Assembly: GCF_003991155.1 (NCBI RefSeq)
Contig: NZ_CP031293.1
Reading direction: 5' to 3' (one strand)
Source of the DNA: Escherichia coli
GTDB lineage: Bacteria; Pseudomonadota; Gammaproteobacteria; Enterobacterales; Enterobacteriaceae
DNA: 64,000 nt
A program made the translations under genes and the position numbers. Positions 3,526 to 63,647 of the stretch are shown here, one piece after another. Each line of letters begins with the position of its first letter. Positions within the stretch are counted from its first letter, which is position 1. Below the pieces are notes generated by a model. That model had not been told where the DNA came from. It did not search any database and saw only the letters and a list, made by a program, of their open reading frames with translations.

Positions 3526-3831
3526 TTATTTTTGTCTTCCATCCATTTGCGCCAGAAACTTCCTGCCTGCTTTTATATACGTTATTTTTTCAATATCATT
3601 CAGGTCAGGAACTGAAAGCAAAATCCCCATAACGAGTTCTTTATCCACCTGTTCGATATCGCAATGCATAGCTTTAGCTACTTCCGCGCCAAGTATAATC
3701 TTTAGCCTTGTTTCAATTTTCTTTCGTTCTGATTTCTCCAGAGACTTAAGACGATTAAGTTCAAGCTGAGCAAAAGCAACCTTTTGCTTTAATGTTTTTT
3801 CTGTTCTTGATCTTTTACTTTCATCACTCAT
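3526..3831 (-). CDS. Hypothetical small coiled-coil protein; weak resemblance to TraD-like relaxosome accessory proteins
   Basis: ORF; start overlaps the stop of the upstream gene by 4 nt (ATGA-type coupling); motif RKKIETRLKIILGAEVAKA recalled as similar to Ti-plasmid TraD, from memory only. Confidence 0.35.
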   Translation of the reverse strand: MSDESKRSRTEKTLKQKVAFAQLELNRLKSLEKSERKKIETRLKIILGAEVAKAMHCDIEQVDKELVMGILLSVPDLNDIEKITYIKAGRKFLAQMDGRQK

Positions 3832-11629: not shown

Positions 11630-13066
11630 TTATTTATTCAGTTTGTTTATGATTTTTATTACAACTTCTATTGTTTTTTTTACCGAAAAATCTTTTTCAG
11701 TAAGCTCAGACAAATCATTATATATCCATTCATTACTTCCATAATATTTCTTAGGATCTTGTGATATTTGTTCAAATATATATTTAGACATATACCCGGT
11801 ATTGGGTAAAGGAATTGGTACAAGGCCATGTTGAACAGCAATCTCAAACTCTCTAAATACTCCCCTAGCATTTACTATATCATTATTTTCCTCTTGTTTA
11901 TTTCCAAAAATAAACAATGCAATACCACCAAGAGGAATCATTCTCTGTCTATACTCCTCCCAAAGTTCTTGAATATCTTTCCCCTTACTGACAGTTTGTG
12001 GAAATGGTCTAACAATGAGCTGTTCTTCTGATAATTTATCTGGCCTACTATAAATTGCATCCAACGCACCATTTATCACAGAACTTCCGACGCCCCATCC
12101 AAATCCATTCACTATCCTATAATTATTCTTTATAATCTCATATGCTAATGTGTGAATAAAATCTAATGCTTTAGGTCTTTCAAGATCCCCATATTTTTCT
12201 GCACTACCAGAAATAAATATCGTTTTCTTTTTAAATGATTGCTCTATCTTAGCTAGAATTTTAGGGATGTCAGAATATTCATCTATTAATAATACTTGTA
12301 TACCAAATCTCTTGAGATCATCGATTCGCAGTTTTTGTTTTCTGATCTTATAATTTACTGTTTCTTCATCATCTAGGGAATTATTAGCCTCATTCTTCAT
12401 AAAGCAATAGTGTGTCCTCTTGTCCCCAGAATGAGTATACAAACGACTCAAAATGTAATCCAGATTTGGGTCGGTAAAACTAAACCCTATGAATAGAAAG
12501 GTTTTTGATATTAAATCTCCGCTAAGTGCGGTGATAAATGAAGCGTGTGTTCTGTAGTATTTTTCATACTGCTCTTTATATAAAATAGCCTTGGATGGGG
12601 ACGAAATATCACCATGCATTTTATATACTATCGCGTCTCGCTTAGGTCGTGTTGTATTTAAATCATCTATGTTTCTTTTTACATCTGCAATTTTGTAAAC
12701 TTTCCGCAGACTATCTTCAATTAAAGTGTCATAGTTTGTTGTCCAAAATGTCTTAATCGGTAAACGAGCAATTATATTATGAACCTCTGATGGCTCGGCT
12801 TGCTCAGAAAACTCTTCGATTATCTTCCTTGTGAGTTTTGTAGCCCCTTTCTTTTCATTAACATGAAATTGAGCAAGCGATATTAGATCGTCTTCTTTAT
12901 TAATGTCTAAACTAAGCTCTTCTGCTATATCGCTAAGTAATTCTTTCCAATCAACATAACCTTGACTTTTAGACATTCCTGCGCCAGAAAAAATAGCAGC
13001 ACAATCATTTTCAAGATCTTTAACAAAATCTTTTATGAAAACTTCAATTTCATTACTAAACGTCAT
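11630..13066 (-). CDS. thsA: Thoeris ThsA, SIR2 (NAD-binding) plus SLOG domain protein
   Basis: From ATG at 13066 (GGAG RBS 9 nt upstream) the protein MTFSNEIEVFIKDF...AAIFSGAGMS...TTNYD...MHGD (SIR2) then IFISGSA...GFGWGVGSSVINGALD (SLOG) closely parallels Bacillus cereus ThsA as I recall it. Confidence 0.85.
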   Translation of the reverse strand: MTFSNEIEVFIKDFVKDLENDCAAIFSGAGMSKSQGYVDWKELLSDIAEELSLDINKEDDLISLAQFHVNEKKGATKLTRKIIEEFSEQAEPSEVHNIIARLPIKTFWTTNYDTLIEDSLRKVYKIADVKRNIDDLNTTRPKRDAIVYKMHGDISSPSKAILYKEQYEKYYRTHASFITALSGDLISKTFLFIGFSFTDPNLDYILSRLYTHSGDKRTHYCFMKNEANNSLDDEETVNYKIRKQKLRIDDLKRFGIQVLLIDEYSDIPKILAKIEQSFKKKTIFISGSAEKYGDLERPKALDFIHTLAYEIIKNNYRIVNGFGWGVGSSVINGALDAIYSRPDKLSEEQLIVRPFPQTVSKGKDIQELWEEYRQRMIPLGGIALFIFGNKQEENNDIVNARGVFREFEIAVQHGLVPIPLPNTGYMSKYIFEQISQDPKKYYGSNEWIYNDLSELTEKDFSVKKTIEVVIKIINKLNK

Positions 13067-20860: not shown

Positions 20861-20950
20861 TGGCGGAGAGAGGGGGATTTGAACCCCCGGTAGAGTTGCC
20901 CCTACTCCGGTTTTCGAGACCGGTCCGTTCAGCCGCTCCGGCATCTCTCC
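20861..20950 (-). tRNA. serU: tRNA-Ser (anticodon CGA), serU
   Basis: Reverse complement reads GGAGAGATGCCGGAGCGGCTGAACGGACCGGTCTCGAAAACCGGAGTAGGGGCAACTCTACCGGGGGTTCAAATCCCCCTCTCTCCGCCA, matching the E. coli serU sequence as I recall it. Confidence 0.95.
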
Positions 20951-27340: not shown

Positions 27341-27820
27341 TTAATAGAGTCTCTCTTCCCATAAGCTATATGCACTGGTTCCTGCAACACAGTGCTCCTG
27401 AGTAATACTTTCATAGGTGAATGATATGGCCTCTTCTGGTTGTCCCTGGCTATTGTTGACAGTGTGCGGCACAATATGCTTTATGCTGGCAATGCGGGCG
27501 TTAATCAGCTTCACTTTGAAATACAGCTCGTTAATACCAAAACGGTTGGTGCGGTAATACTCAAAATCACAGGTCAGACACTCATTTTCGCTGATAGCCT
27601 TACTCAACAAAGGGGAAGATTTATCCACGGGTTTCTGAATAATGAGCGCTTGATGATTCACGTTTTGTGCACGGGTTAATCCGTGGCTGAGTCCCAGCAC
27701 CATGATCTGATCCATATGCGCAATCTGCGCTTTGTTCCCAATAGATGCCAGTGATGAACAGCCTGCGGAGATCAGCCCCTGGAGATCGCCGTTCAGTGTC
27801 AGGTAAACAGGATTTGCCAT
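27341..27820 (-). CDS. hcp: Hcp-family T6SS tube protein (second copy)
   Basis: MANPVYLTLNGDLQG... with KPVDKSSPLL and ELYFKVKL pattern typical of Hcp; AAGGAG RBS. Confidence 0.7.
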   Translation of the reverse strand: MANPVYLTLNGDLQGLISAGCSSLASIGNKAQIAHMDQIMVLGLSHGLTRAQNVNHQALIIQKPVDKSSPLLSKAISENECLTCDFEYYRTNRFGINELYFKVKLINARIASIKHIVPHTVNNSQGQPEEAISFTYESITQEHCVAGTSAYSLWEERLY

Positions 27821-47627: not shown

Positions 47628-48146
47628 ATGCCAACACCGTGTTATATCTCAATTACTGGTCAGACCCAGGGAAACATCACCGCAGGTGCATTTACTGCTG
47701 ATTCCGTCGGCAATATCTACGTGCAGGGCCATGAAGATGAAATGCTGGTGCAGGAATTCCTGCATAACGTCACCGTCCCGACGGACCCACAATCTGGCCA
47801 GCCAGCCGGACAGCGCGCTCACAAGCCATTTATCTTCACTGTGGCGCTGAACAAAGCAGTCCCCCTGCTGTACAACGCGCTGGCCTCCGGTGAAATGCTG
47901 CCTACCACTGAACTGCACTGGTGGCGTACCTCTGTGGAAGGCAAACAGGAACATTACTTCACTACCCGCCTGACAGACTCGACAATTGTTGATATGAAGT
48001 TGCATATGCCGCACTGCCAGGACCCGGCAAAACGCGAGTTCACCCAGTTACTCGAAGTTTCGCTGGCCTACCGCAAAATCGAGTGGGAACACGTTAAGTC
48101 AGGCACTTCTGGCGCTGACGACTGGCGTGCACCGCTGGAAGCATAA
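47628..48146 (+). CDS. hcp: Hcp T6SS tube protein
   Basis: MPTPCYISITGQTQGNITAGAF... typical Hcp1; AAGGAG RBS 7 nt before ATG. Confidence 0.9.
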   Translation: MPTPCYISITGQTQGNITAGAFTADSVGNIYVQGHEDEMLVQEFLHNVTVPTDPQSGQPAGQRAHKPFIFTVALNKAVPLLYNALASGEMLPTTELHWWRTSVEGKQEHYFTTRLTDSTIVDMKLHMPHCQDPAKREFTQLLEVSLAYRKIEWEHVKSGTSGADDWRAPLEA

Positions 48147-48359: not shown

Positions 48360-50348
48360 ATGTCATTAAAAGGATTGCGTTTTACGCTGAAAGTGGACGG
48401 CCAAAATGCGGACACCTTCGCCGTGGTAAATTTCTGGCTGATGCAGAATTTCTCGTTTCCATTTGTTATGGATGTAGATGTCGCCAGCAAGGAGTTTGGT
48501 ATTCAAGCAAATAGCTTGCTGGAAAAAAAAGCCACGCTGATCATCTGGCAGGGCCCCAAGGCGCTGCGTTATGTATCGGGTGTAATTGCCAGTTTCGGAA
48601 TGAAAGAAAACAATAACTGGCAGATGCAGTACCGCCTTCGTATCCAGCCACCTCTGTGGCGTAGCGGCCTACGCCAGAATTTCCGTATTTTTCAACAGCA
48701 AGATATTGCAACTATTTCAGCCACCTTACTGGATGAGAATGGTGTAACAGACTGGGAGCCATCCTTAAACAGTGAGCACCCTACTCGCGAGTTCTGCGTA
48801 CAGTATGGCGAAACGGACCTGGCATTTCTGTCACGGCTATGGGCAGAAGAAGGCATTTATTTTTATGATAAGTTAGCCCCGAACGGCCCGGATCAGAAAC
48901 TGACATTATGTGATGATGCAGCAGGTTTGTCGCCAATAGGAACCATTACCTTCAACCCAAATACCCGAACTGAAGCCGACAAGGAGTGCATCAATGCGTT
49001 TCATTACGAAGCTAATGTTCGTCCTTCATCAATACTGAGCAAAGACTACACCTTTAAAACCCCCGGCTGGGAAGGCAAATATATCCGACAGGGCGAGAAT
49101 CTGAACAACCAGTTTGAACAGTATGAAATCTATGACTACCCAGGACGTTTCAAGGATGAACAGCACGGGCAGGATTTTACCCGTTATCAGATGGATGGGT
49201 TGCGTAATGATGCGGAATTAGGCAGCGGTAGCAGCAATTCGCCGAGGCTATGGCCAGGAACCCGTTTCAAACTGGAGAACCATCCACAGAAAACCCTGAA
49301 CCGGGAATGGCAAGTGATCGGTAGCACACTAACGGGCGAACAGCCGCAGGCATTACATGGTAGCCAGGGTTACGGAACCTCGATGCATAACCAGTTTACT
49401 GTTATCCCGGCAGACCGTACCTGGCGTCCACAGCCAATGATGAAGCCAAAGGTAGATGGTCCACAAAGTGCCATTGTCACCGGTCCGGCTGGCGAGGAAA
49501 TTTTCTGCGATGAACATGGCCGGGTACGGGTGAAGTTTCACTGGGACAGAACCAAAACCAAAGATGAGAATAACTCCTGTTGGGTACGAGTGTCACAAGC
49601 CTGGGCTGGAGCCGGATTCGGCAACCTTGCCATTCCGCGTATAGACCAGGAAGTGATTGTCGATTTTCTTAACGGCGATCCCGACCAGCCCATCATCATG
49701 GGACGTACTTATCACCAGGATAACCGCTCTCCCGGTGGTCTGCCTGGCACCAAAACGCAGATGACTATCCGTTCAAAAACCTACAAAGGTGAGGGTTTTA
49801 ACGAACTACGTTTTGAGGATGCGACCAGTAACGAACAGCTTTATATGCACGCCCAGAAGGACATGGTGACAGAGGTACTGCATGACCGGACGACAACAGT
49901 GGATCACGACCATACCGAAACAGTGAAGAATAACCAGACGGTCACAGTAGTTGTTGGTCAGACGGTCAATGTGGGCAGTAAAAAAGAAGGCGGACACGAC
50001 CAGAAAGTGACGGTTGCCCACGACCAGACAGTCACGGTTCAGAACAACCAGACGCTGAATGTCACAGAAAAGCGTGAAAAAAATGTGGGTGGAGACCAGA
50101 AGGTCACTATCACTGGCGGCGATGATGAAACTGTCATGAAGTCGCAAAAGGTAACAGTAAAAGAAAACTATACGCTTGATGTCACCAAAGAAACGAAGAT
50201 TATTTCCGGCGAGTCGATTGAGCTTATCTGTGGCTCCTGCTCCCTGAAAATGGAAAAAGGTGGCAAGGTAACAATCTCCGGCTCAGAGTTTGATTTTACT
50301 GCTGGTGGCCTTGTGCATATCAACGGTAAAGACGTATTTATCAACTGA
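48360..50348 (+). CDS. vgrG: T6SS spike protein VgrG (TssI)
   Basis: 662 aa; gp27/gp5-like pattern and C-terminal beta-helix repeats (VTV..NQTV); AGGGAGG RBS. Confidence 0.9.
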   Translation: MSLKGLRFTLKVDGQNADTFAVVNFWLMQNFSFPFVMDVDVASKEFGIQANSLLEKKATLIIWQGPKALRYVSGVIASFGMKENNNWQMQYRLRIQPPLWRSGLRQNFRIFQQQDIATISATLLDENGVTDWEPSLNSEHPTREFCVQYGETDLAFLSRLWAEEGIYFYDKLAPNGPDQKLTLCDDAAGLSPIGTITFNPNTRTEADKECINAFHYEANVRPSSILSKDYTFKTPGWEGKYIRQGENLNNQFEQYEIYDYPGRFKDEQHGQDFTRYQMDGLRNDAELGSGSSNSPRLWPGTRFKLENHPQKTLNREWQVIGSTLTGEQPQALHGSQGYGTSMHNQFTVIPADRTWRPQPMMKPKVDGPQSAIVTGPAGEEIFCDEHGRVRVKFHWDRTKTKDENNSCWVRVSQAWAGAGFGNLAIPRIDQEVIVDFLNGDPDQPIIMGRTYHQDNRSPGGLPGTKTQMTIRSKTYKGEGFNELRFEDATSNEQLYMHAQKDMVTEVLHDRTTTVDHDHTETVKNNQTVTVVVGQTVNVGSKKEGGHDQKVTVAHDQTVTVQNNQTLNVTEKREKNVGGDQKVTITGGDDETVMKSQKVTVKENYTLDVTKETKIISGESIELICGSCSLKMEKGGKVTISGSEFDFTAGGLVHINGKDVFIN

Positions 50349-50358
50349 GGCGTGAAAA

Positions 50359-51540
50359 ATGGAATTTCGTAATCTTACGCCGTTTTCAGTAATGCAATAT
50401 GCAATGGACGACAAACACAACGAGCGTCATTGTGTGGTCGCCATGAAAACCGGCTTCCGGCTGAAGCAGGACGAGAATGGTCAGTGGCAGGCACAACTGA
50501 TGGAAAACCCGCCATTGCCGCTCTGTGTGGAGGATGAGTATGCCGGGGAGATGAACACCTCTCCGGTACTGCGTGAAAGTGACCTTGCTCCTCTGAAACC
50601 CGCCTGTGACATCATCATCAACGGAACAGCTTATACGCCGGGAGGCGCTGCCGTGCCAGAAATGACGGCAGGCGTTCTTATGCTCTCATCGACAGGTGAG
50701 GTGCTGACAGACAAAAAACTGCGGATAACAGGCCAGCGTTTCTACAGGTACCAGCCGTTAATCCGCCAGTGGTATGAAACTGAACCGGAACCCTTCACCT
50801 CCCTGCCGCTTGACTACCGTTACGCTTTCGGCGGCGAATGCCGCGTGGAGGCAGGCAGCGAATATGCCAGCCGCGTCCCCGAAGAATATCGCCTGACCGA
50901 AGACCAGCGTCGGGAACACCCAAACCAGGAGAATCCACCACTGGCGCATATGGCCTGTCCGGTCAATCCACTCGGATTAGGCTATATGCAGCAGTGGTAT
51001 CTGCGGGCCTGTCAGGTTCAGCAGGTTGAAGCGCCCCGCATCATCGCCGTGGACAGCCCATTCACACTCAAACAGTTCACAGACTGTCTCGAAGGGAAAG
51101 CAGACTGGTTTGCCCCCGAATTTCAGCCAGCCGGTTTTGGCTGTATCGGGCGCGCCTGGCTGCCACGGTTATCTCTTGCTGGCACCTATGACCAGGAGTG
51201 GCTGGAAACACAACACCCCGACCTGCCGGATGATTTTGATTTTAACTACTGGAACTGCGCCCCGGATGACCAGCGCATCCCTTTTCCTCTGCCAGGACTG
51301 GGATTTGTACTGACGGGTTTTCGCCCGGAGGGCGATATCCGGTTCACCCTGCCCGCACATGAAGGACGCCTTCTGTTGCGCGCCATGAGCGGGCATCGAA
51401 TGCCATTACCCATGTTGCTGGATACGGTGGAAATCAATACTGACACCCTGACCGTGGCGCTGACCTGGCGCTTTCTGCTGCCCAACAGCACACCACCGGT
51501 GCGGGTACTGGAAGCCCGCTACAGAACAAGGAGCGCCTAA
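50359..51540 (+). CDS. DUF2169-family T6SS adaptor protein
   Basis: Position between vgrG and PAAR-Rhs; size and sequence pattern as in DUF2169 adaptors. Confidence 0.7.
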   Translation: MEFRNLTPFSVMQYAMDDKHNERHCVVAMKTGFRLKQDENGQWQAQLMENPPLPLCVEDEYAGEMNTSPVLRESDLAPLKPACDIIINGTAYTPGGAAVPEMTAGVLMLSSTGEVLTDKKLRITGQRFYRYQPLIRQWYETEPEPFTSLPLDYRYAFGGECRVEAGSEYASRVPEEYRLTEDQRREHPNQENPPLAHMACPVNPLGLGYMQQWYLRACQVQQVEAPRIIAVDSPFTLKQFTDCLEGKADWFAPEFQPAGFGCIGRAWLPRLSLAGTYDQEWLETQHPDLPDDFDFNYWNCAPDDQRIPFPLPGLGFVLTGFRPEGDIRFTLPAHEGRLLLRAMSGHRMPLPMLLDTVEINTDTLTVALTWRFLLPNSTPPVRVLEARYRTRSA

Positions 51541-51542
51541 GG

Positions 51543-54500
51543 ATGGCCGACAACTTTACAGCCCGTAAGCACGGACAATGGAAAGTCATCAGCACCAAAC
51601 CGGATGTCTGTAAAACACCACGCGGAGATTCCACACCGCCTGTCCCCTACCCTGTCACAGCCAATATGGCTGAAGCAGTGATGGTGGTGCAGTCGGTGAA
51701 GCTGAACGGCTGCCCGGCAGTGGTCCTAAACCAGAGCACCATCCCTCAGACAAAGGGCGATGCCGCAGGTGCGGCAAAAGGTGTCAGCAGCGGTACAGTG
51801 GGTGATGTCTGCGAGCCGCTGGACCACAGCGAGACAGTATTTTTTGGCGGCAAGCCGATACTGCGTCACCACGATGAGTTCTGGATGAACAGCCGTAACA
51901 CCATCGGCCTAATCGTGGGCCAGCCGCCACCGGCAGGCGTGCCTGCGGAAGAAGCGGACCCGCCGGATGAACCGGAGACGGAAGAAGAGGAAGAAAAGAG
52001 CAGCTGGCTGGACTGGGTGCAGACAGGACTGGATATTGCCGGGTTTGCACCGGGCTTTGGTTTTTTTGCCGATATGCTGAATGCGGGTATCAGCCTGGCG
52101 CGTGGTAATTATGCTGACGCGTTTATGTCTGTGGCGGCCTCACTTCCGGGGATAGGTGATGCGGCAGCGGCTGGCAGGATGGCAGTTAAAGGACGAAAAG
52201 CAGCAAAGGCGGCTAAAGAAGCCGCCGAACGAGCCGCAAAGAAAAAGCTGGAGAAGGAGGCGGCAATGCGCTCCCGTGCGCTGAGAAAAGCCCAGAAGAA
52301 AGCGGCAGCTAAAAAGAAAGGGGGTATCGTTAAGGGGAAAGCGAAAAATAACAAAGGCAAAGGTAAGGGTGCGGAAAGCAGTGATTGTACCAAACCCGGC
52401 GAACCCGTGGACGCCGGAACCGGCGACTTTCTCCAGCACTTCAGCGTTCTTTCCCTTCCCGGCTCACTTCCTCTCACGCTTTCCCGGTTTTACCGTTCTC
52501 AGGCACAACATGGCGGCATCTTTGGTCCCAAATGGACCGATGAATGGTCCGTATCCCTGAAGGTACACACTGACGGCAACCTGCACTTCACTGACGGTGA
52601 AGGGGTGGAACTGTACTACCCCATTCCGCAGGACGGCATTTTTGAGGGTGCAGCGAACTCCCGCCAGGCACACTACCGGCTGACGGGCGACATGAGCGGA
52701 GAACTGTCGTTGTCCGACCGCCGCACACAGCAGACACAGATTTTTTCTCAGGCAGGCACAGGTACTTATTTGCTGTCTGCCCTTCATGACAATTACGGCA
52801 ACCGGATTGATTTTATCCGCACGGACGGCCTGCTGACAGAAATCCGCCACAGCGACGGCTACACGCTCGCGCTTGCCTGGCTACAGCAGCAACTAATGAG
52901 CATTGACCTGGCAACACCGCGGCGTCAGCGCCTTGTCACCTGTCAGTACGATGATAATGGTTATCTGGCAGAGTGCGATACTTTCCAGTTTTCTCATCTG
53001 TGGCATGAATACACGACTGAAGGGTTTATGACCCGCTGGCGGGATACGGATAAAACCTGCGTGGATATCCGTTACGACCCGCAGGGGCGCGCCATCAGCA
53101 CCCTGTCAACCGAAGGCTATTACGACGACCGTTTTATCTATAACGATGAAGAGCACTGTACCACCTACGTGGATGCAGAAGGCGGCGAAACCCGTTACTG
53201 GTATAACGAAGACGGCCTGGTCACCCACAGCACCGACCCGCTGGGCCGTGAAGAGATTACAGTATGGGAAAACACGCAACTTCAGTCGCGCACCGACGCG
53301 CTGGGGCGTAAAACAGCGTATGAATATAACGATGAGGGCGATATCTGGCATGTTGCCCTGCCGGGCGGCTACAGCCTCTATTACGACTACAACGACGCCG
53401 GGCAGTTAACCCGCCTGACCCTGCCGGGCGACCAGGTATGGCTGTGGGACTACGACGATAAGGGCAGCATGGTCTGCCTGACCGACCCGCAGGGCCGGAA
53501 ACAGCAGTTCAGCTACAGCCAACAGGGTGATTTACTGGCGCGGATTATGCCGGGCGGAGCCACCTGGCGCTGGAGCCATGACGCCCTGCACCAGGTGCGC
53601 GAGACCACTGCGCCGGACGGCGGCGTCACGCAGACTGAACAGGATATGCTGGGCCGCCTGCTGAGTGTGAAAGACCCGCTGGGCTTCACCACGCAGTTCC
53701 GCCACAGCAAAACCCACGCTGGGCCGCTGGGCAGCGTGGAAGAAATTAACCGCCCGGATGGCGTGCGGGAACTGATGCGCCAGAACAGTGAAAAGCTGCC
53801 GGAGAGCTTCACCGATGGCGAAGGCAAAACCACCCGCTACGAATATGGTGCATTTGACCTGTTAACGGCAGTTATCCGCCCGGATGGTGAACGGCTGGAG
53901 TGCCGCTACGACAAGCTGACCCGCCTGACCGAAATCACCAACGCGGAAGGTGAGCACTACCGTCTGGAATATGATAAAGCCGGGCAGCTTATCGCGGAAA
54001 CCGACTTCACCGGGCGCACACTGACCTACAGCTACGATGCGGCAGGCCGCTGTACCCGCACCACCTTCCCGGACGGCACTCACCTGAACCGCCGCTACAA
54101 CGTGACCGACCAGGTAACGGACGAGGAAGTCACCCAGGGCGACAGCAACCGTACCCTGAGCGCCACCACCTTCCTCTATGACACGCTGTGCCGCCTGGTG
54201 GAGGCGAAAAACGATGATGCCATCGTTACGTATGAATATGACAGTGCCAGCAGGGTTGTGGCCGAGACAATCAACGGCAGGCGTACAGAATACAGTTACG
54301 ACAATAATCTCGACACAGTTTCACAGCGCACCACCGCAGGCATCACAGAGCACTTCACCCGCAACCTGATGGGCTATCTGACCACCTGGCAGATAGCCGA
54401 CCATGCCCCGCTGACATTTGAACATGACCTGCGCGGCATGGAAACGTCCCGACGCAGCGAGGCCGGGTTTTACCAGACGCTGGCTTACACCCGCACAGGA

Positions 54501-55961
54501 ATGCCAACGAAGCAGAATGCCGGGGACCACCGGGCCGGCTCGGATGAGCGGAATAAAAGCCTGAAGCGCCAGTGGCTGTATGACAAAGCGTATAATCTGA
54601 CCGCAATCGCCGACTCGCTGCGCGGCTCCATGTTCAACACCATCACGGCGAACGACCAGATAAGCCACGCCACCTGGACGGGTGATTCCAGTCAGTTTCC
54701 GCTGTGTGAGGAACTGTTCACTTACGACAAAAACCTGAACATCACCCGCCGCCAGACCCGGGTGAATGACATACTGGAAAGCGAAACGCACCAGCAGAAC
54801 CGGCATGGACGGGTGATATCAAGTGAGCATGAAGGCTGGCGGCACTCAACGCACCGCATCAATCCGCAGACAGGAAAACCGGAAGAAGGGAAATTTGTCC
54901 GGGTGGTGAACGCCCATAACGTCACCTGGAAATACGATGTTAACGGCAGGCTGATACAGAAGCTGGTCGATAAAGGCGGTTACCGACCGCTGGAATGGCG
55001 CTACAGATGGGACGCGCGCAGCCAGCTAACCGGGCTGGAAACCCCGGATGGTGAACGCTGGGAATACAAATACGACCCCTTCGGCAGGCGCATCAGCAAG
55101 CGCTGCACCAACCGCGACAAACCCGGTATGGATTTTCACTGGAATGGCGACCAGTTGACGGAGGAAATTCCGGTCGGCGCTGACAGTAGTCCTGATACTG
55201 AAAACAGCATCCGCTGGATATATGAGCCGGGAAGTTTTACACCGATTGCGCGTTATGAGAAGGGGCAACTGCATTATGCAGTGACGAACACGGTTGGCCG
55301 CGTACAGGAACTGCTGACAGAAAACGGCCTGATAGTCTGGAAAGGCAAGCAGCAGCTATGGGGCCGTGAGGAAGGCAGAAATAAGAAAGATGCGCCCACA
55401 TGCCGGTTACGTTTTCCGGGGCAGTACGAGGATGTGGAATCAGGGTTGTACTATAACCGGTTCCGGTACTATGATTGCGAGACAGGACAATATCTGTGTG
55501 CTGATCCGTCAGGATTGGACGGAGGGATTAATCCATATGGGTATGTGCATAATCCATTAGGGTGGGCAGACCCTTTTGGGCTAGCCAAAAAGAACGCTCA
55601 GAATACAGTTTTCAGATATCTGAGTGCAGACGATCGTATTCGATATGAGAATGGTCAAAGTTTATTACCTAAAGGTGAGTTTGGTTCAATAGTTGAACAT
55701 GTTGATGGAAAAAATACAGGACATATTTCTGCATCGCTTACCAAGTGTGCAGCTAAAATATTTGATTCGGGCAATGGGTATATAGAAATTGATGTTCAAA
55801 AAATTATCGACAGTGGTATATCATTTATTGATCACAAGAATGTTATGCAAGCGGTTCGTCGTAGCGGCTCTTTAACTAACAGGAGAGATGCCGAAAGAGC
55901 ACTAGAAGTTCTCTTCAAAGGTGAAATTCCCTTTGATGCAATTATTCGTCATGTTATATAA
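51543..55961 (+). CDS. rhs: PAAR-like (DUF4150) Rhs-repeat polymorphic toxin with variable C-terminal toxin domain
   Basis: N-terminal PAAR-like region; many YD/Rhs repeats; demarcating motif PYGYVHNPLGWADPFGL at about 55540-55583 followed by an unrelated AT-rich 125-aa C-terminus. Confidence 0.9.
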   Translation: MADNFTARKHGQWKVISTKPDVCKTPRGDSTPPVPYPVTANMAEAVMVVQSVKLNGCPAVVLNQSTIPQTKGDAAGAAKGVSSGTVGDVCEPLDHSETVFFGGKPILRHHDEFWMNSRNTIGLIVGQPPPAGVPAEEADPPDEPETEEEEEKSSWLDWVQTGLDIAGFAPGFGFFADMLNAGISLARGNYADAFMSVAASLPGIGDAAAAGRMAVKGRKAAKAAKEAAERAAKKKLEKEAAMRSRALRKAQKKAAAKKKGGIVKGKAKNNKGKGKGAESSDCTKPGEPVDAGTGDFLQHFSVLSLPGSLPLTLSRFYRSQAQHGGIFGPKWTDEWSVSLKVHTDGNLHFTDGEGVELYYPIPQDGIFEGAANSRQAHYRLTGDMSGELSLSDRRTQQTQIFSQAGTGTYLLSALHDNYGNRIDFIRTDGLLTEIRHSDGYTLALAWLQQQLMSIDLATPRRQRLVTCQYDDNGYLAECDTFQFSHLWHEYTTEGFMTRWRDTDKTCVDIRYDPQGRAISTLSTEGYYDDRFIYNDEEHCTTYVDAEGGETRYWYNEDGLVTHSTDPLGREEITVWENTQLQSRTDALGRKTAYEYNDEGDIWHVALPGGYSLYYDYNDAGQLTRLTLPGDQVWLWDYDDKGSMVCLTDPQGRKQQFSYSQQGDLLARIMPGGATWRWSHDALHQVRETTAPDGGVTQTEQDMLGRLLSVKDPLGFTTQFRHSKTHAGPLGSVEEINRPDGVRELMRQNSEKLPESFTDGEGKTTRYEYGAFDLLTAVIRPDGERLECRYDKLTRLTEITNAEGEHYRLEYDKAGQLIAETDFTGRTLTYSYDAAGRCTRTTFPDGTHLNRRYNVTDQVTDEEVTQGDSNRTLSATTFLYDTLCRLVEAKNDDAIVTYEYDSASRVVAETINGRRTEYSYDNNLDTVSQRTTAGITEHFTRNLMGYLTTWQIADHAPLTFEHDLRGMETSRRSEAGFYQTLAYTRTGMPTKQNAGDHRAGSDERNKSLKRQWLYDKAYNLTAIADSLRGSMFNTITANDQISHATWTGDSSQFPLCEELFTYDKNLNITRRQTRVNDILESETHQQNRHGRVISSEHEGWRHSTHRINPQTGKPEEGKFVRVVNAHNVTWKYDVNGRLIQKLVDKGGYRPLEWRYRWDARSQLTGLETPDGERWEYKYDPFGRRISKRCTNRDKPGMDFHWNGDQLTEEIPVGADSSPDTENSIRWIYEPGSFTPIARYEKGQLHYAVTNTVGRVQELLTENGLIVWKGKQQLWGREEGRNKKDAPTCRLRFPGQYEDVESGLYYNRFRYYDCETGQYLCADPSGLDGGINPYGYVHNPLGWADPFGLAKKNAQNTVFRYLSADDRIRYENGQSLLPKGEFGSIVEHVDGKNTGHISASLTKCAAKIFDSGNGYIEIDVQKIIDSGISFIDHKNVMQAVRRSGSLTNRRDAERALEVLFKGEIPFDAIIRHVI

Positions 55962-55980
55962 AATAGGAAGGAGTGGAATA

Positions 55981-56274
55981 ATGCCTGCACTATCTGAGTA
56001 CTCGAATGTACACAACACTGTTTTTAATATTTTGATTTGTAAAGGATATCGATTGTGGCATGAAAAAAAACAAGAAAGATATTATGCCGAAAAAGATGGT
56101 TGGGATTTTGTAGCCAATAGCCCGTGTGCTCTCTTGGGGCTCATTGCTATTTATGAATATAAAAAACCCGATCATTATTATGAGTACTGGTGGAAAGATG
56201 AAGGATTACATTTAGAAAAAAACATTAGTGAAATCGCTCCTGAATATAACTCAATCATTTTAAAAAATAATTAG
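55981..56274 (+). CDS. Putative Rhs immunity protein
   Basis: Small AT-rich ORF immediately after the toxin domain, GGAAGGAG RBS before ATG 55981. Confidence 0.5.
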   Translation: MPALSEYSNVHNTVFNILICKGYRLWHEKKQERYYAEKDGWDFVANSPCALLGLIAIYEYKKPDHYYEYWWKDEGLHLEKNISEIAPEYNSIILKNN

Positions 56275-56299
56275 TTGTATACTACTATGATGATGACTC

Positions 56300-56810
56300 G
56301 GTAATAATAACAAACGAAACCCTCAACGGCAGACGGACGGAATATGGCCACGACGCAGAACAGGATTATGTCACCCGGCGCACCACCGCAGGCATTACGG
56401 AACGTTTCACCCGCGGGTTGATGGGTGAGCTGACATCGTGGCAGATAGCCGACCATGCGCCGCTGGCATTTGAATATGACCTGCGCGGCCAGGAAACATC
56501 CAGACAAAGCGAGGCCGGATTTTACCAGACGCAGGGCTACACGCAGACAGGAATGCTGACAACGCAGCGTTCGGGAAGCCAGGCAGAGCCGGAGGCGAAG
56601 AATAAAGACCTGCAACGCCAGTGGCTGTACGACCATGCGTATAACCTGACGATGATATCGGACACGCTGCGCGGGACGATGGTCAACAGCGTGACAGCGA
56701 ACGACCAGATAAGCCATGCCACCTGGACGGGCAGCAGTAATATGCCGATGAGTGAGGAACGCTTCCTCTACGACAAAAACCTGAATATCACCGCCGCCAG
56801 ACCTGGGTGA
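56300..56810 (+). pseudogene. Orphan Rhs core fragment, frameshifted relative to the downstream CT ORF
   Basis: Near-duplicate of main rhs about 54270-54770; a 1-nt difference near 56795 (ccc to cc) breaks the frame. Confidence 0.6.
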
Positions 56811-58030
56811 ACGAGGTACTGGAGAGCGAGACACATCAGCAGCAACAGCATGGCCGGGTGGCGTCGCGTGGACACAAAGAATGGCGACACTCAACGCACC
56901 GGATTAACCCGGACACTGGCAAGCCGGAGGAAGGGAAATTTGTCCGGGTGGTCAACGCGCACGGTATCACCTGGAAGTACGATATTAACGGTCGTCTGGT
57001 GGAGAAGCTGGTCGATAAAGGTGGCTATCGCCCTCTCCAGTGGCGTTACAAATGGGATTCACGCAGCCAGTTGACCGGGCTGGAAACACCGGATGGTGAA
57101 CGCTGGGAGTATAAATACGACCCGTTCGGCAGGCGCATCAGCAAACGCTGTACCAGCCACGATAAACCCGGTATGGATTTTCACTGGAACGGCGACCAGT
57201 TGACGGAGGAAATTCCGGTTGGTGTGGATGGCAAACCGGAAGACGAAAACGCCATCCGCTGGATATACGAGCCGGGAGATTTCACGCCGTTTGCGCGTTA
57301 TGAGAAGGGGCAACTGAATTATGCGGTGACGGACACGGTTGGACGAGTACAGGAACTGCTGACCGAAGACGGCCTGATTGTCTGGAAAGGCAAGCAGCAG
57401 CTATGGGGACGTGAGGAAGGCATCAATAAGGGCGATGCACCCACCTGTCGGTTACGTTTTCCGGGGCAGTATGAGGACACAGAATCGGGACTGTACTATA
57501 ACCGGTTCCGGTACTATGATTGCGGGACGGGGCAGTATATCTCTTCAGATCCGATTGGGCTGAGAGGGGGAATAAAACCATATGGCTATGTTCATAGTCC
57601 ATTAAATTATATTGACCCATTAGGTTTAGCTAACGCTAAAGTTATAGATAATGTTTTGCATATTGTGGATAAATTTGGAGTAAATGGGGCTGCTCCTGAT
57701 ACTGCAGCATCCAGAGAATTGGCTGAGTTTGTAAAAAGATGGAACGAGCAGATAGTGGCGAATGGTGGTTCAATGGCCAGACGTTCTGTTTGTAAAGAAG
57801 TCAGAAAAGCAGCAAGTGAAGCCGCCGCTGCTGAGAGAAAACTTAACCCAAGTTTATATGCTAATGGTGAAGTGGCGGGGCATATTCCAGATGTTGGATG
57901 GGGTGGAAAAATTGATGGTCCGTTTATGCCGTTAAGTCCAAAAGTAAATTCTTATATTGGTGGGTTAACTCAAGCAGTGCCTGTTGGTACAACTTATACA
58001 TCGGTAAGAATAGTGGACATTATACTATGA
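56807..58030 (+). CDS. Orphan Rhs C-terminal region with alternative toxin domain
   Basis: Rhs core ending in PYGYVHSPLNYIDPLGL followed by a distinct 139-aa C-terminus; GTG start, no own promoter evident. Confidence 0.6.
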   Translation: MNEVLESETHQQQQHGRVASRGHKEWRHSTHRINPDTGKPEEGKFVRVVNAHGITWKYDINGRLVEKLVDKGGYRPLQWRYKWDSRSQLTGLETPDGERWEYKYDPFGRRISKRCTSHDKPGMDFHWNGDQLTEEIPVGVDGKPEDENAIRWIYEPGDFTPFARYEKGQLNYAVTDTVGRVQELLTEDGLIVWKGKQQLWGREEGINKGDAPTCRLRFPGQYEDTESGLYYNRFRYYDCGTGQYISSDPIGLRGGIKPYGYVHSPLNYIDPLGLANAKVIDNVLHIVDKFGVNGAAPDTAASRELAEFVKRWNEQIVANGGSMARRSVCKEVRKAASEAAAAERKLNPSLYANGEVAGHIPDVGWGGKIDGPFMPLSPKVNSYIGGLTQAVPVGTTYTSVRIVDIIL

Positions 58031-58554
58031 AAAAATTAAAAGAATTGATTAACGATATTTTGGTTGATTTAAAAATAAATATAACGGAATTACCTGTCAC
58101 TTTACACAGCCATGATAAAGTACCCACGCTAAAAAAAGATTACTATAGAAATCTTAGCCCTATGCTAAAGGTTAGATTTGGTATGTTCTCTAGTTGGAAG
58201 AATGCAACACATGGGGATTGGCTTTCAATAGAAGAGATGATGGAAATTTGGCGTGATGATTTGGTAATAAATGACCGATTGTGGCGAATTAAGGAGAATC
58301 AGATAGCTGCTCGTAATAATTGGGACAATGATGCTTCTTCGCTTTTCAAAAATAATAGATTATCACTTTTTGCTGGAAGTGAGTCTACCTATGAACGAAT
58401 ATATCTGCTTTGGTTAGATAGTGAAATTGAACCTGAGATATGGGTATATGACTGCAATGGTGAATCGAGATATAAAAATCTAGAGTCTTATTTAAATGCA
58501 TATATAAATGACGATGTTAGTGCTAGTAATGAGTCATGGAGAGCCAAATACTGA
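58027..58554 (+). CDS. Putative immunity protein for orphan toxin 1
   Basis: AT-rich ORF overlapping the toxin stop (ATGA). Confidence 0.5.
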   Translation: MKKLKELINDILVDLKINITELPVTLHSHDKVPTLKKDYYRNLSPMLKVRFGMFSSWKNATHGDWLSIEEMMEIWRDDLVINDRLWRIKENQIAARNNWDNDASSLFKNNRLSLFAGSESTYERIYLLWLDSEIEPEIWVYDCNGESRYKNLESYLNAYINDDVSASNESWRAKY

Positions 58555-58777
58555 CGCAGCGACAGTCACCCAGTTAGAGTGAGAGCATGAAAAATATGTT
58601 TTTATACAATATTTTATCGCTATATTTTTGTCATCTGTTTTTGCGCGAAAATCACTCGACAATTTGCATGATATAACCAATTACTCATTAAATTTACCTG
58701 CAGCCTAGTAGGGCTGTCTGACCACCTGGCAGATAGCGGACCATGCCCCGCTGACATTTGAGCATGACCTGCGCGGC

Positions 58778-60310
58778 ATGGAAACCTCCCGACGCAGCGG
58801 GGCCGGATTTTACCAGACGCTGGCTTACACGCGCACAGGGATGCCAGCGAAGCAGAATGCCGGGGACCACCAGGCCGGGCCGCATGAGCGAAATAAAAGC
58901 CTGGAGCGGGAATGGCTTTACGACAAAGCGTATAACCTGACCGCAATCGCCGACTCGCTGCGCGGCTCCATGTTCAACACCATCACGGCAAACGACCAGA
59001 TAAGCCACGCCACCTGGACGGGTGATTCCAGCCAGTTTCCGCTGTGCGAGGAGCTGTTCACTTACGATAAAAACCTGAACATCACCCGCCGCCAGACCCG
59101 TGTGAATAACGTCCTGGAAAGCGAAACGCACCAGCAACAGCAGCATGGCCGGGTGATATCCAGTGAGCATGAAGGCTGGCGGCACTCAACGCACCGCATC
59201 AATCCGCAGACAGGAAAACCGGAAGAAGGGAAATTTGTCCGGGTGGTGAATGCCCATAACATCACCTGGAAATACGATGTTAACGGCAGGCTGGTACAGA
59301 AGCTGGTCGATAAAGGTGGCTACCGCCCTCTCGAATGGCGCTACAGATGGGATGCAAGAAGCCAGCTAACCGGACTGGAAACCCCGGATGGCGAACGCTG
59401 GGAATATAAATACGACCCGTTTGGCAGGCGCATCAGCAAACGCTGCACCAACCGCGACAAACCCGGCATGGATTTTCACTGGAACGGCGACCAGCTAACG
59501 GAGGAAATTCCGGTTGGCGTTAACGGTAAACCGGAAGACGAAAACGCCATCCGCTGGATATACGAGCCGGGAGATTTCACGCCGTTTGCGCGTTATGAGA
59601 AGGGGCAACTGAATTATGCGGTGACGGACACGGTTGGACGAGTACAGGAACTGCTGACCGAAGACGGCCTGATTGTCTGGAAAGGCAAGCAGCAGCTATG
59701 GGGACGTGAGGAAGGCATCAATAAGGGCGATGCACCCACCTGTCGGTTACGTTTTCCGGGGCAGTATGAGGACACAGAATCGGGACTGTACTATAACCGG
59801 TTCCGGTACTATGATTGCGAGACGGGGCAGTATATCTCTTCAGATCCCATAGGATTACTTGGGGGGATAAATCCTTATGGATATGTTCGTAACTCGCTGG
59901 AATTGATTGACCCTTGGGGGCTAGACAGTAAACGCGCTCGACTCCTCAAACAAAAAGGATTCCAAGAACATCATATTATCAGCGATAAAAACAGCTTAAC
60001 CAAAAACCATCCATTGTTGAAGGCCGCGGCATACGACCTACAGAAAATGAAAAACAAGATTTTCTTACCTACAAAATGTGAACTTCATGCAACTCGATCC
60101 ATTCATAAAGGGAGGCATCAAAAAAAGGTAAGTGAAAACCTGGCAAATGAAATGGACAAAGTGTTAGAACACGGGAGAAAACATGGGTGGACGCAAAAAC
60201 AATACAGTGACGCACTTGACGAAATAGTTGCTAAAGAAAGAGCCCTCTTGAAATCTGGCCATAGAGCTTTAAATAAAAACAGACGTGCATGGTCTGTTTT
60301 ACTAACTTAA
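58778..60310 (+). CDS. Orphan Rhs C-terminal region 2 with HNH-superfamily-like nuclease toxin domain
   Basis: Homology to main rhs begins about 58712; ends in PYGYVRNSLELIDPWGL then a C-terminus containing FQEHHIISDK ... HATRSIHKGRH. Confidence 0.6.
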   Translation: METSRRSGAGFYQTLAYTRTGMPAKQNAGDHQAGPHERNKSLEREWLYDKAYNLTAIADSLRGSMFNTITANDQISHATWTGDSSQFPLCEELFTYDKNLNITRRQTRVNNVLESETHQQQQHGRVISSEHEGWRHSTHRINPQTGKPEEGKFVRVVNAHNITWKYDVNGRLVQKLVDKGGYRPLEWRYRWDARSQLTGLETPDGERWEYKYDPFGRRISKRCTNRDKPGMDFHWNGDQLTEEIPVGVNGKPEDENAIRWIYEPGDFTPFARYEKGQLNYAVTDTVGRVQELLTEDGLIVWKGKQQLWGREEGINKGDAPTCRLRFPGQYEDTESGLYYNRFRYYDCETGQYISSDPIGLLGGINPYGYVRNSLELIDPWGLDSKRARLLKQKGFQEHHIISDKNSLTKNHPLLKAAAYDLQKMKNKIFLPTKCELHATRSIHKGRHQKKVSENLANEMDKVLEHGRKHGWTQKQYSDALDEIVAKERALLKSGHRALNKNRRAWSVLLT

Positions 60311-60322
60311 CAGAGAAAATAT

Positions 60323-60880
60323 ATGTATAGATGGACAATCCCAGAACAATATGCCAATAAGTATATTGGAGAATATCAATATGAATCTTTTGATTACTTA
60401 CTTTTTTCTCATAGCACACCAATTGAAAGAGTTGAGAATATCAATCCAGTCATTATCTACGCGATGCCCGATGAAATGATAAATAAATATGATTGCTTGC
60501 CAAATAGTTCATTGATCCCCGTAGTTAATGAACGACTAAAGGACTTCCTGGAAACACATGCCAAAGGTAATGTTGAGTTTCATAAAATAGACCTTCACAC
60601 GAACAATGGACTCAAAGATGGTTTTTATCTTTTGAATACACTCACAAAACTACCGTTAATTGATATGCAGCACTCTCATTGCCAGTATATTCCCGGAACA
60701 ACAGCGATCATGGGGTTTGAACAGGTTTTTTTTATTGAAGAGCCTCCGGAAGATTTTTGCATTGCACGATGCGCAGAATATTCATCTTATCTTATGTTAT
60801 CTGATTCATTAGTAAAAAAAATGAAAAAAGAAAAATTTAAAGGAATTTCATATTCGAAAGTTCCTGTTCACCGAGGTTAA
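60323..60880 (+). CDS. Putative immunity protein for orphan toxin 2
   Basis: 185-aa AT-rich ORF 13 bp after the toxin stop. Confidence 0.5.
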   Translation: MYRWTIPEQYANKYIGEYQYESFDYLLFSHSTPIERVENINPVIIYAMPDEMINKYDCLPNSSLIPVVNERLKDFLETHAKGNVEFHKIDLHTNNGLKDGFYLLNTLTKLPLIDMQHSHCQYIPGTTAIMGFEQVFFIEEPPEDFCIARCAEYSSYLMLSDSLVKKMKKEKFKGISYSKVPVHRG

Positions 60881-61507: not shown

Positions 61508-62644
61508 ATGGAACTTAAAAAATTGATGGAACATATTTCTATTATCCCCGATTACAGACAAGCCTGGAAAGTGGAACATAAATTATCGGATATTCTACTG
61601 TTGACTATTTGTGCCGTTATTTCGGGTGCAGAAGGCTGGGAAGATATAGAGGATTTTGGGGAAACACATCTCGATTTTTTGAAGCAATATGGTGATTTTG
61701 ATAATGGTATTCCTGTTCACGATACCATTGCCAGAGTTGTATCCTGTATCAGTCCTGCAAAATTTCACGAGTGCTTTATTAACTGGATGCGTGACTGCCA
61801 TTCTTCAGATGATAAAGACGTCATTGCAATTGATGGAAAAACACTCCGGCATTCTTATGACAAGAGTCGCCGCAAGGGTGCGATTCATGTCATTAGTGCG
61901 TTCTCAACAATGCACAGTCTGGTCATCGGACAGATCAGGACGGATGAGAAATCCAATGAAATTACAGCTATCCCTGAACTTCTTAACATGCTGGATATTA
62001 AAGGAAAAATCATCACAACTGATGCGATGGGTTGCCAGAAAGATATTGCAGAGAAGATACAAAAACAGGGCGGTGATTATTTATTCGCTGTAAAAGGAAA
62101 TCAGGGGCTGCTTAATAAAGCCTTTGAGGAAAAATTTCCACTGAAAGAATTAAATAATCCAGAGCATGACAGTTACGCCATTAGTGAAAAGAGTCACGGC
62201 AGAGAAGAAATCCGTCTTCATATTGTTTGCGATGTCCCTGATGAACTTATTGATTTCACGTTTGAATGGAAAGGACTGAAGAAATTATGCGTGGCAGTCT
62301 CCTTTCGGTCAATAATAGCAGAACAAAAGAAAGAGCCAGAAATGACGGTCAGATATTATATCAGTTCTGCTGATTTAACCGCAGAGAAGTTCGCCACAGC
62401 AATCCGAAACCACTGGCACGTGGAGAATAAGCTGCACTGGCGTCTGGACGTGGTAATGAATGAAGACGACTGCAAAATAAGAAGAGGAAACGCAGCAGAA
62501 TTATTTTCAGGGATACGGCACATTGCTATTAATATTTTGACGAATGATAAGGTATTCAAGGCAGGGTTAAGACGTAAGATGCGAAAAGCAGCCATGGACA
62601 GAAACTATCTCGCGTCAGTCCTTGCGGGGAGCGGGCTTTCGTAA
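61508..62644 (+). CDS. ISAs1-family transposase (H-repeat-associated protein)
   Basis: [18 protein letters not shown]...[20 protein letters not shown] matches H-rpt/ISAs1 transposases found beside rhs loci. Confidence 0.85.
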
Positions 62645-62813: not shown

Positions 62814-63647
62814 ATGGCTTTCGTTTCTGCGTTAGTTAATTTGCGTTATGATTTAAACAAATATATTGTAGAGTTACGACGCATTTCAAATCTTGCCGCG
62901 ACATTTCTTATGGAAGATGATTTTATTAAGAATTTCTATCTTAATGAAGTTGAAATAAGCATAAATAATTATAATTTTAGATTCAATAACGAGCGAAACC
63001 CATTCAAGCAAAGGGAAATAGTTTTTGAACTTAAAGAAGAAGTTGAGTTGGAAAAAAAAGAATATGATATATTAAGAATGAAAGATCATGTTACTTATAT
63101 GGTAACTGATATGTTTGAAGAACAAGGCGTGTTAAAATATGTAAAAATATTTGGAGGGGTTGCTACAGGAGGAATAGAACTTTTCACTGCCTATGGGTAT
63201 TATCAATTGGGTAAAACATTACACCTTAGAAGATTACGTGGGATAGCAATTGTTTTTGCTTCTTATGGCGTTGATAATATATGGGAGTCAGTCTCTCCTT
63301 TGATTTTTGAAGAAGCGAATGCAGGGCCTCTTAGACGTGTTATTCGGGGAATTGCTGGTGAGTTTGGAATAAGTGAAGATGATTCTGATTTAGGGTATAG
63401 TTTTGTTGAATTTTCATTGTCCTTATATAATACTTTTAATGCAAGAAAATTGTTTCCGAATGAAAATAGGTTAGTTATAGGTGTGGGAAGAAAAAGGCCA
63501 GGGACTGGTAGGCTTTTTAATAATGTAAGCTGGGATTATGCATCTAAATGGTCAAAAATGAATACAAATATGAAGATTTGGAATTTAGGGTATAGCGCTT
63601 ATAAAGCCAAACTGGAATTTTATGATGAGAAATATAAATTTAAATAA
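62814..63647 (+). CDS. Hypothetical protein
   Basis: 277-aa AT-rich ORF. Confidence 0.35.
   Translation: MAFVSALVNLRYDLNKYIVELRRISNLAATFLMEDDFIKNFYLNEVEISINNYNFRFNNERNPFKQREIVFELKEEVELEKKEYDILRMKDHVTYMVTDMFEEQGVLKYVKIFGGVATGGIELFTAYGYYQLGKTLHLRRLRGIAIVFASYGVDNIWESVSPLIFEEANAGPLRRVIRGIAGEFGISEDDSDLGYSFVEFSLSLYNTFNARKLFPNENRLVIGVGRKRPGTGRLFNNVSWDYASKWSKMNTNMKIWNLGYSAYKAKLEFYDEKYKFK

Follow-up and report, generated by a model that had tools for sequence, protein, structure and literature searches.

Our analysis of a 64,000-nucleotide stretch of Escherichia coli DNA (contig NZ_CP031293.1 of assembly GCF_003991155.1; hereafter the window) centers on positions 50359–56274, where an adaptor gene, a long rhs gene and a small open reading frame (ORF) follow a vgrG gene. 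We propose, with a probability of roughly 0.8, that they form a specialized effector module of a type VI secretion system (T6SS), in which the tip of the Rhs protein is a toxin with an ADP-ribosyltransferase (ART) fold of the R-S-E type and the small ORF encodes an immunity protein that binds it. This model is directly supported by the arrangement of domains, the predicted fold, homology to RhsF-CT (the toxin tip of an Rhs protein from Chromobacterium violaceum), residue conservation, and the co-inheritance of toxin and immunity genes; what we say of secretion, cleavage, use of nicotinamide adenine dinucleotide (NAD+), toxicity and the mode of immunity is drawn by analogy from relatives. The argument turns on two features:

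55584–55958, + strand: C-terminal toxin domain, residues 1348–1472 of the Rhs protein; predicted ADP-ribosyltransferase fold, with R1358, S1396, F1407 and E1455 as the predicted active site
55981–56274, + strand: putative cognate immunity gene, 97 residues (MPALSEY...); downstream homologues in 12 of 12 loci

Searched as a single sequence, the 125-residue toxin domain gave nothing significant in NCBIfam, Pfam or the PDB, and a word-indexed homologue search returned only 10 relatives; it was an exhaustive profile search that revealed the family. A first profile, built from nine close homologues of 56–88% identity (Xenorhabdus, Lonsdalea and metagenomic), matched PDB chain 9ZDM_B, which is RhsF-CT, at E 1.8e-6 over positions 6–122/123. 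Entry 9ZDM is the complex of RhsF-CT with its immunity protein RhsFi (CV_1431/CV_1430); RhsF-CT is toxic in E. coli, is delivered by a T6SS, and is neutralized by RhsFi plugging its catalytic pocket (bioRxiv 10.64898/2025.12.06.692724). Run against 1.84 billion cluster representatives, this nine-sequence profile picked up 169 proteins at E≤1e-3, of which 91 reach E≤1e-10; in nearly every case the match sits at the extreme C-terminus, and the proteins differ widely in length. A wider profile, made from an 85-sequence alignment of full-length matches, reached 9ZDM_B at E 6.9e-18 and also gave faint matches to pertussis toxin S1, and a direct pairwise comparison of the toxin domain with RhsF-CT yielded 30% identity at E 8e-7. 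Ten of the 85 aligned members match Pfam DUF7587 (PF24494) at E≤1e-3 (best 2.8e-9) and 38 do so at E≤0.1, while a few weakly match DarT or Scabin-like families. The DUF7587 entry itself carries no function, and literature searches for DUF7587 and for the RefSeq protein accessions returned no papers from the searchable library. On these sequence comparisons, the toxin tip is a distant but detectable homologue of RhsF-CT and overlaps DUF7587.

Several other candidates were considered as relatives and rejected. Tre23, TreTu and TreX, ART toxins of Photorhabdus and Xenorhabdus, were not accepted as family members: Tre23 matched the profile solely through its Rhs core region, and TreX shares 12% identity, carries an ExE motif and is a structural neighbor only. 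Tne5 was set aside for its different size and key residues, and the Salmonella Rhs2-SciX tip is a BECR nuclease, unrelated to the toxin described here.

The AlphaFold2 model of the toxin domain, computed from the 85-sequence alignment, has a mean predicted local distance difference test (pLDDT) score of 94.8 and a predicted template modeling (pTM) score of 0.86, with 117 of the 125 residues at a pLDDT of at least 90. When the model was compared with the PDB by Foldseek, almost all of the top matches listed had an ART fold, among them pertussis toxin S1 (E 6e-4, query-normalized TM-score 0.66), cholera toxin A1, heat-labile enterotoxin, EcPltA, CARDS, Scabin and ScARP, and also DarT, Tpt1/KptA and a Xenorhabdus Rhs toxin. 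As modeled, the domain is a compact ADP-ribosyltransferase fold with a split β-sheet. In domain numbering, R1358 lies in the strand at 8–12, S1396-A-S1398 in the strand at 47–51, and E1455 at the start of the strand at 108–112; these positions correspond to β1, β2 and β5, as expected of an R-S-E ART. For RhsF, whose C-terminal domain is structurally similar to the ARTs ScARP and EcPltA, toxicity requires R1403, Y1456 and E1497, and in part S1445 (bioRxiv 10.64898/2025.12.06.692724). RhsF residues R1403, S1445, Y1456 and E1497 align to R1358, S1396, F1407 and E1455, the codons of which lie at nucleotides 55614, 55728, 55761 and 55905, respectively. Across the 85 sequences the arginine is kept in 83, the first serine in all 85 and the glutamate in 84, and the position equivalent to Tyr1456 is aromatic in 80 (F in 45, Y in 35).

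Several points weigh against the proposed model and need to be set beside this evidence. Compared with the toxin sequence alone, DUF7587 reaches E 0.06–0.08, over the C-terminal half only and below threshold. The equivalent of RhsF Y1456 is Phe1407, which lacks the hydroxyl group. The [QE]xE motif of protein-modifying R-S-E ARTs, whose ExE form serves arginine modification in TreX and Tre1, is replaced by A-L-E; we consider the signature absent from the family because the residue two ahead of the catalytic glutamate is alanine in 66 of the 85 sequences (aspartate in 8). No enzymatic activity has been reported for any member of the family, RhsF included (bioRxiv 10.64898/2025.12.06.692724). Finally, the ART fold also houses plain NAD(P)+ glycohydrolases such as Tne5 (PMC13285283), and because of this both transfer and hydrolysis are conceivable for the toxin.

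The small ORF almost certainly begins at ATG 55981. A longer ORF call had it begin at GTG 55921 (55921–56274), but the internal start is favored because it follows a Shine-Dalgarno sequence, opens the conserved segment MPALSEYSNV, and is also the RefSeq start:

55965–55973, + strand: Shine-Dalgarno sequence AGGAAGGAG of the immunity gene, as read from the sequence

The MPALSEYSNV N-terminus is near-invariant, and Met1 invariant, in 51 immunity homologues. The gene lies 20 nt downstream of the toxin gene, and a scan for sigma-70 promoters and terminators around it found nothing over the shuffled background. Its homologues (n=56, about 95–110 residues) are all unannotated and carry no Pfam domain; their hosts are Enterobacteriaceae, Xenorhabdus, Caballeronia, Flavobacterium, Polyangiaceae, Prosthecobacter and Moraxella. 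When 51 of these were made into a profile, it found no chain in the PDB, and so did not find RhsFi (9ZDM chain A) either; the AlphaFold2 model of the 97-residue protein (pLDDT 89.8) is an α-β3-α arrangement.

Linkage of this gene to the toxin was assessed in a scan of one genome per species, in which close toxin homologues occur at 12 loci. The hosts (Pectobacterium, Superficieibacter, Yersinia nurmii, three Xenorhabdus species, a Saccharospirillaceae bacterium, Snodgrassella, Spirilliplanes, Minicystis and Nannocystis) span Gammaproteobacteria, Betaproteobacteria, Myxococcota and Actinomycetota, and at every one of the 12 loci an immunity homologue (E≤4e-41) lies directly 3' of the toxin on the same strand. 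No X. bovienii locus came up in the scan; XBJ1_1298 of that species, a predicted NAD+ hydrolase encoded behind DUF2169, is at most a candidate member of the family. The same adjacency is seen in a Caballeronia DUF6531-Rhs locus and in two metagenomic loci, where the carriers are SpvB/TcdB/PT-HINT or FG-GAP/YD-shell proteins. Judged by this gene order, the 97-residue protein is the cognate immunity protein and is co-inherited with the toxin. The earlier note on this DNA had already described the ORF as a cognate immunity gene, which the adjacency at 12 of 12 loci bears out, although its start has to be moved from GTG 55921 to ATG 55981. Orphan copies of the immunity gene with no accompanying toxin occur in Flavobacterium collinsii and Prosthecobacter. 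In the Prosthecobacter contig (L007, 1498–4182) the copy stands between two aldehyde-dehydrogenase gene fragments of 498 and 288 residues, an arrangement suggestive of insertion into that gene.

How might the module work? The PAAR-like N-terminus of the Rhs protein would seat on the VgrG spike, aided by the DUF2169 adaptor, while the YD-repeat shell would encapsulate the 125-residue toxin. The aspartyl autoprotease marked by DPSGL-x17-DPFGL is expected to free the toxin by a cut predicted, by analogy, to fall after L1347, and the toxin would then be released into the cytoplasm of a rival cell, where its damage would depend on NAD+. We predict that R1358 and S1396 hold NAD+, that F1407 stacks on it, and that E1455 is the catalytic glutamate, so that an essential target of the rival cell would be ADP-ribosylated at the expense of NAD+. 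The 97-residue protein would protect the producer and its kin, most likely through 1:1 binding of the toxin that blocks the NAD+ cleft.

The wider toxin family comprises 169 representative clusters on Rhs, SpvB/TcdB and PT-HINT carriers in at least four phyla, and other partners follow it elsewhere. Behind an RhsF-like Rhs protein (locus L015) stands an unrelated protein of 103 residues. In a distant branch recognizable by the motifs WISTT...WAQE, a helical protein (about 112–115 residues) and/or a NADAR-domain protein stands behind the toxin; this branch is reached by the close-subfamily profile at E ~1e-4. A NADAR gene is present at two of three distant-branch loci, directly after the toxin in L012 and as the second gene downstream in L013, and is absent from L016; the two genes lie at 12337–12978 (L012) and 3111–3557 (L013) of metagenomic Rhs/SpvB loci. 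NADAR enzymes undo the ADP-ribosylation of guanine and cytidine bases, function as antitoxins against DarT2, and are active against the modifications made by ScARP and Scabin (PMC11543638, PMC11125620, PMC12945103). Their position behind distant family members suggests enzymatic immunity against base ADP-ribosylation.

What would the toxin modify? Enzymes of the pierisin, Scabin and ScARP kind and the DarT enzymes modify nucleic-acid bases, and it is conceivable, albeit tentatively, that the toxin likewise ADP-ribosylates guanine or cytosine in DNA or RNA instead of a protein. The NADAR genes at two of the three distant-branch loci, the sole target-specific clue, point in this direction, since such enzymes undo precisely guanine and cytidine ADP-ribosylation (PMC11543638, PMC11125620, PMC12945103), as does the fact that guanine-specific ScARP was the best structural match of RhsF-CT in its own paper. 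ScARP, Scabin, DarT and KptA are also among the structural neighbors found here, and the family is without the ExE of arginine modification. Yet the branch with NADAR genes is remote, the close-subfamily profile reaching it at E ~1e-4, and of its three examined loci L016 lacks the gene; Scabin and ScARP have a QxE that the family does not, and ARTs readily switch targets between homologues. Moreover, the scores of ARTs that act on proteins (TreX, pertussis toxin, EcPltA and CARDS) are as high or higher, and the equal structural scores of TreX, pertussis-like toxins and CARDS speak for modification of a protein, a target that we can entertain just as cautiously. That the toxin is instead an NAD(P)+ glycohydrolase with an ART fold, killing by NAD+ depletion, seems unlikely to us: Tne5, itself an ART-fold C-terminal toxin of an Rhs protein, does hydrolyze NAD(P)+ without detectable transfer (PMC13285283), and the first Glu/Gln of [QE]xE, which is linked to transferase activity, is absent from the toxin, but no sequence relation to Tne5 was detected, the 174-residue Tne5 domain has a lysine as its reported key residue and not R-S-E, the closest structural matches are true transferases, and the NADAR genes of the distant branch are explicable only by a transfer of ADP-ribose to a base.

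The earlier note had been unable to assign the last 125 residues and thought that they might form a new toxin fold, unrelated to nucleases, deaminases and ADP-ribosyltransferases. The single toxin sequence, with no significant match in Pfam, NCBIfam or the PDB, gives that impression, and RhsF-CT too had no BLAST or motif matches in its own study. The idea has become barely credible, given that both profiles match a crystal structure with an ART fold, 9ZDM_B (E 1.8e-6 and 6.9e-18), that the ART active-site residues are conserved in the 85-sequence alignment, and that 10 of the 85 members score E≤1e-3 or better against DUF7587, with a few weak matches to DarT or Scabin-like families. The claim of a new fold fails because the domain, by its ART fold, its homology to RhsF-CT (9ZDM) and its overlap with DUF7587, matches an ADP-ribosyltransferase family, though one that is partly characterized. 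Returning to the ART-fold model, we speculate further, with more doubt than confidence and as something we would not bet on, that a widespread minimal ART family of about 120 residues, without [QE]xE and overlapping DUF7587, ADP-ribosylates bases, and that some of its branches are countered by NADAR enzymes and the present one by a new family of small α-β3-α binding proteins with a topology resembling that of double-stranded RNA-binding domains. If this were true, base ADP-ribosylation would be a common interbacterial T6SS weapon, in E. coli as elsewhere.

The composition of the locus sets the toxin and immunity genes apart from the rest of the rhs gene. The GC content is 0.365 in the toxin part and 0.327 in the small ORF, compared with 0.569 in the remainder of rhs; the AT-rich tail of 125 residues after a DPxGL motif, described in the earlier note, is thus confirmed and counts exactly 125 residues. 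Nucleotide homology of the main rhs gene to two orphan rhs fragments downstream ends at 55546–55559, about 25–35 nt ahead of the last DPFGL codon, and because it stops there we regard the toxin tip as a swapped cassette. The cassette of toxin and immunity gene (55584–56274) is present in 28 of 5426 complete E. coli genomes, in all of them on the chromosome and at no less than 99% identity, and the 5' region of rhs is likewise found at ≥99% identity in exactly 28 E. coli genomes. The two lists of genomes were compared in part, and among the matches listed each genome with the 5' region has the cassette. A further 11 E. coli genomes hold a relative at about 78% identity. Because cassette and 5' region each occur in 28 genomes, the whole effector allele appears, on this sequence survey, to be a rare, lineage-restricted trait and not a cassette shuffled within E. 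coli.

A module in such a place could also be in decay or silent, an rhs tip displaced like its orphan neighbors and neither expressed nor delivered. The surroundings lend themselves to this thought, as the module sits in a zone of rhs rearrangement with two orphan fragments (one of them frameshifted) and insertion sequence (IS) elements immediately downstream. We consider it very unlikely nonetheless: the toxin tip is in frame with a complete Rhs protein of 1472 residues whose PAAR-like domain, shell and cleavage motifs are intact, the residues equivalent to catalytic ones are all preserved, a strong ribosome-binding site precedes the immunity gene, and the module is ≥99% identical in all 28 E. 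coli carriers.

The ART-fold effector model also fits the genomic setting. Positions 55300–56400 are 100% identical to several E. coli chromosomes in a nucleotide search, for example NZ_CP041996.1, and in the RefSeq annotation of that genome the module forms the 3' end of a complete T6SS cluster, with tssB, C, E, F, G, J, K, M, A and H, tagH and two hcp genes upstream, on an island that adjoins a tRNA-Asn gene. The delivery proteins and the parts of the Rhs protein are the following:

48360–50348, + strand: VgrG/TssI spike protein, 662 residues (TIGR03361 VI_Rhs_Vgr, E 8.1e-182; RefSeq tssI)
50359–51540, + strand: DUF2169 T6SS adaptor, 393 residues (Pfam PF09937, E 2.1e-65, full model)
51543–55961, + strand: PAAR-like Rhs polymorphic toxin, 1472 residues (Tox-PAAR-like, DUF6531 and RHS repeats)
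51585–51908, + strand: Tox-PAAR-like domain, residues 15–122 (Pfam PF13665, E 2.4e-31)
51948–52370, + strand: Rhs linker in three segments, read from the translation
52398–52619, + strand: DUF6531 plug region, residues 286–359 (Pfam PF20148, E 5.9e-18)
52620–55502, + strand: YD/RHS-repeat shell (multiple RHS_repeat matches, residues 533–1187)
55503–55583, + strand: DPSGL-x17-DPFGL, C-terminal aspartyl autoprotease motif, residues 1321–1347 (from the motif positions)

These matches to TIGR03361, DUF2169, Tox-PAAR-like and RHS agree with the earlier description of a VgrG-linked DUF2169 adaptor and PAAR-Rhs effector, and RefSeq names the product of 50359–51540 a 'DUF2169 family type VI secretion system accessory protein'. 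The Tox-PAAR-like domain should cap the VgrG tip. In the linker behind it, an acidic segment (residues 136–152, EEADPPDEPETEEEEEK) is followed by a Gly/Ala-rich hydrophobic one of about 60 residues (153–211) and a Lys-rich basic one of about 65 (212–276, KKKLEKEAAMRSRALRKAQKKAAAKKKGG...); the linker may be a docking site for DUF2169 or a membrane-active segment. The DUF6531 plug contains PVDAGTGD at residues 288–295 (nt 52404–52427), which resembles the N-terminal Rhs cleavage motif, known as PVSMVTGE and PVYVASGE in other proteins (PMC13285283). At least eight RHS_repeat matches at E≤1e-3 (Pfam) were found in the Rhs protein. DPSGL occupies residues 1321–1325 and DPFGL residues 1343–1347, and the 17-residue spacer is that of the canonical C-terminal signature DPxGL-x17-DPxGL (PMC11606950, PMC13285283); exactly 125 residues come after the segment PYGYVHNPLGWADPFGL (residues 1331–1347, nt 55533–55583). 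The locus shows the sequence features expected of a T6SS PAAR-Rhs effector, namely a PAAR-like domain, an RHS shell, DPxGL-x17-DPxGL, and adjacency to vgrG, an adaptor and a T6SS. Two different Hcp proteins are encoded, one at each end of the cluster (27341–27820 and 47628–48146).

Downstream of the module lies an array of orphan rhs tips. The first orphan module (56378–58554) begins with an rhs 3' fragment that is split by a frameshift into ORFs 56418–56810 and 56807–58030 and shares 81% nucleotide identity with positions 54326–55559 of the main rhs gene; a different AT-rich C-terminal domain follows DPLGL, and then comes a putative immunity ORF of 175 residues (58027–58554). Neither this tip nor the 58027–58554 ORF matched any model in NCBIfam. 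The second (58711–60880) has an rhs 3' fragment (ORF 58778–60310) that is 90% identical to positions 54371–55546, a third distinct C-terminal domain with 'EHHIISD', by eye a candidate AHH/HNH nuclease motif, and an Imm11 family gene (RefSeq) at 60323–60880. The array ends with an ISAs1-like ISEc1 transposase (61508–62644) and a DUF4225 protein (62814–63647), and a matching genome has a second, frameshifted ISAs1 copy beyond the DUF4225 gene. Elsewhere in the window, on the − strand, a TIR-domain gene (11002–11613) adjoins a SIR2-family gene (11630–13066; RefSeq of an identical genome), a pair that looks like a Thoeris-type anti-phage system. It is carried by an integrative mobilizable element with an integrase, a MobQ relaxase, RepL, a PilV shufflon and a BfpA-like pilin, next to which lies a tRNA-Ser gene (20861–20950).

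What does the module add to what is known? Rhs tips with an ART fold already make up a recognized and expanding class (Tre1, Tre23, TreTu, TreX, RhsP2, Tne5 and RhsF), and for that reason one more member is no surprise. Our analysis joins an E. coli effector, Pfam DUF7587 and the one structure solved so far in the family, and names the predicted catalytic residues. It also defines a conserved family of 97-residue immunity proteins that is annotated nowhere, is strictly co-inherited with the toxin across phyla, and is found in orphan form too. In the distant branch, the association with NADAR is a testable lead to the target of the whole family, RhsF included. Few E. coli genomes carry the module (28 of 5426 complete ones, in near-identical form), and it could therefore matter for competition between strains in that lineage.

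Among known systems, RhsF-CT is the closest counterpart: both are Rhs C-terminal toxins of about 120 residues behind DPxGL, with a T6SS route, predicted for the E. coli toxin, and, as modeled here, an ART fold; they align end to end, and the arginine, serine and catalytic glutamate coincide, with an aromatic residue at the tyrosine position. The two differ in that RhsF toxicity needs Tyr1456, for which the E. coli toxin has Phe1407; compared with RhsF, the delivery parts here are a PAAR-like domain and DUF2169. The immunity proteins are unrelated, RhsFi being a six-helix bundle and the present protein a predicted α-β3-α fold. TreX/TriX of Xenorhabdus bovienii (PDB 8S2M; PMC11606950) also pairs a compact R-S-E ART with an Rhs tip behind VgrG and DUF2169, but identity is 12% over the structural alignment, TreX has the ExE that is absent here, and it needs a thioredoxin chaperone, engaged through a C-terminal extension (PMC11606950). 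The toxin shares the arginine on β1, Ser-x-Ser on β2 and glutamate on β5 with PtxS1, EcPltA, CT-A1, LT-A, CARDS, Scabin, ScARP and pierisin-1. These pertussis-/cholera-like and pierisin-family ARTs are larger (160–240 residues), carry [QE]xE, are mostly exotoxins acting on eukaryotic hosts or secreted Streptomyces enzymes, and show sequence similarity to the toxin no better than E ~0.2–0.5. Tne5 of Pluralibacter gergoviae (PMC13285283) is likewise an ART-fold tip, carried by a PAAR-Rhs protein from an enterobacterium and encoded next to an immunity gene, but its domain has 174 residues, a key lysine and a dispensable glutamate, and its Rhs protein relies on an EagR chaperone and transmembrane helices where the E. 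coli module has a DUF2169 adaptor.

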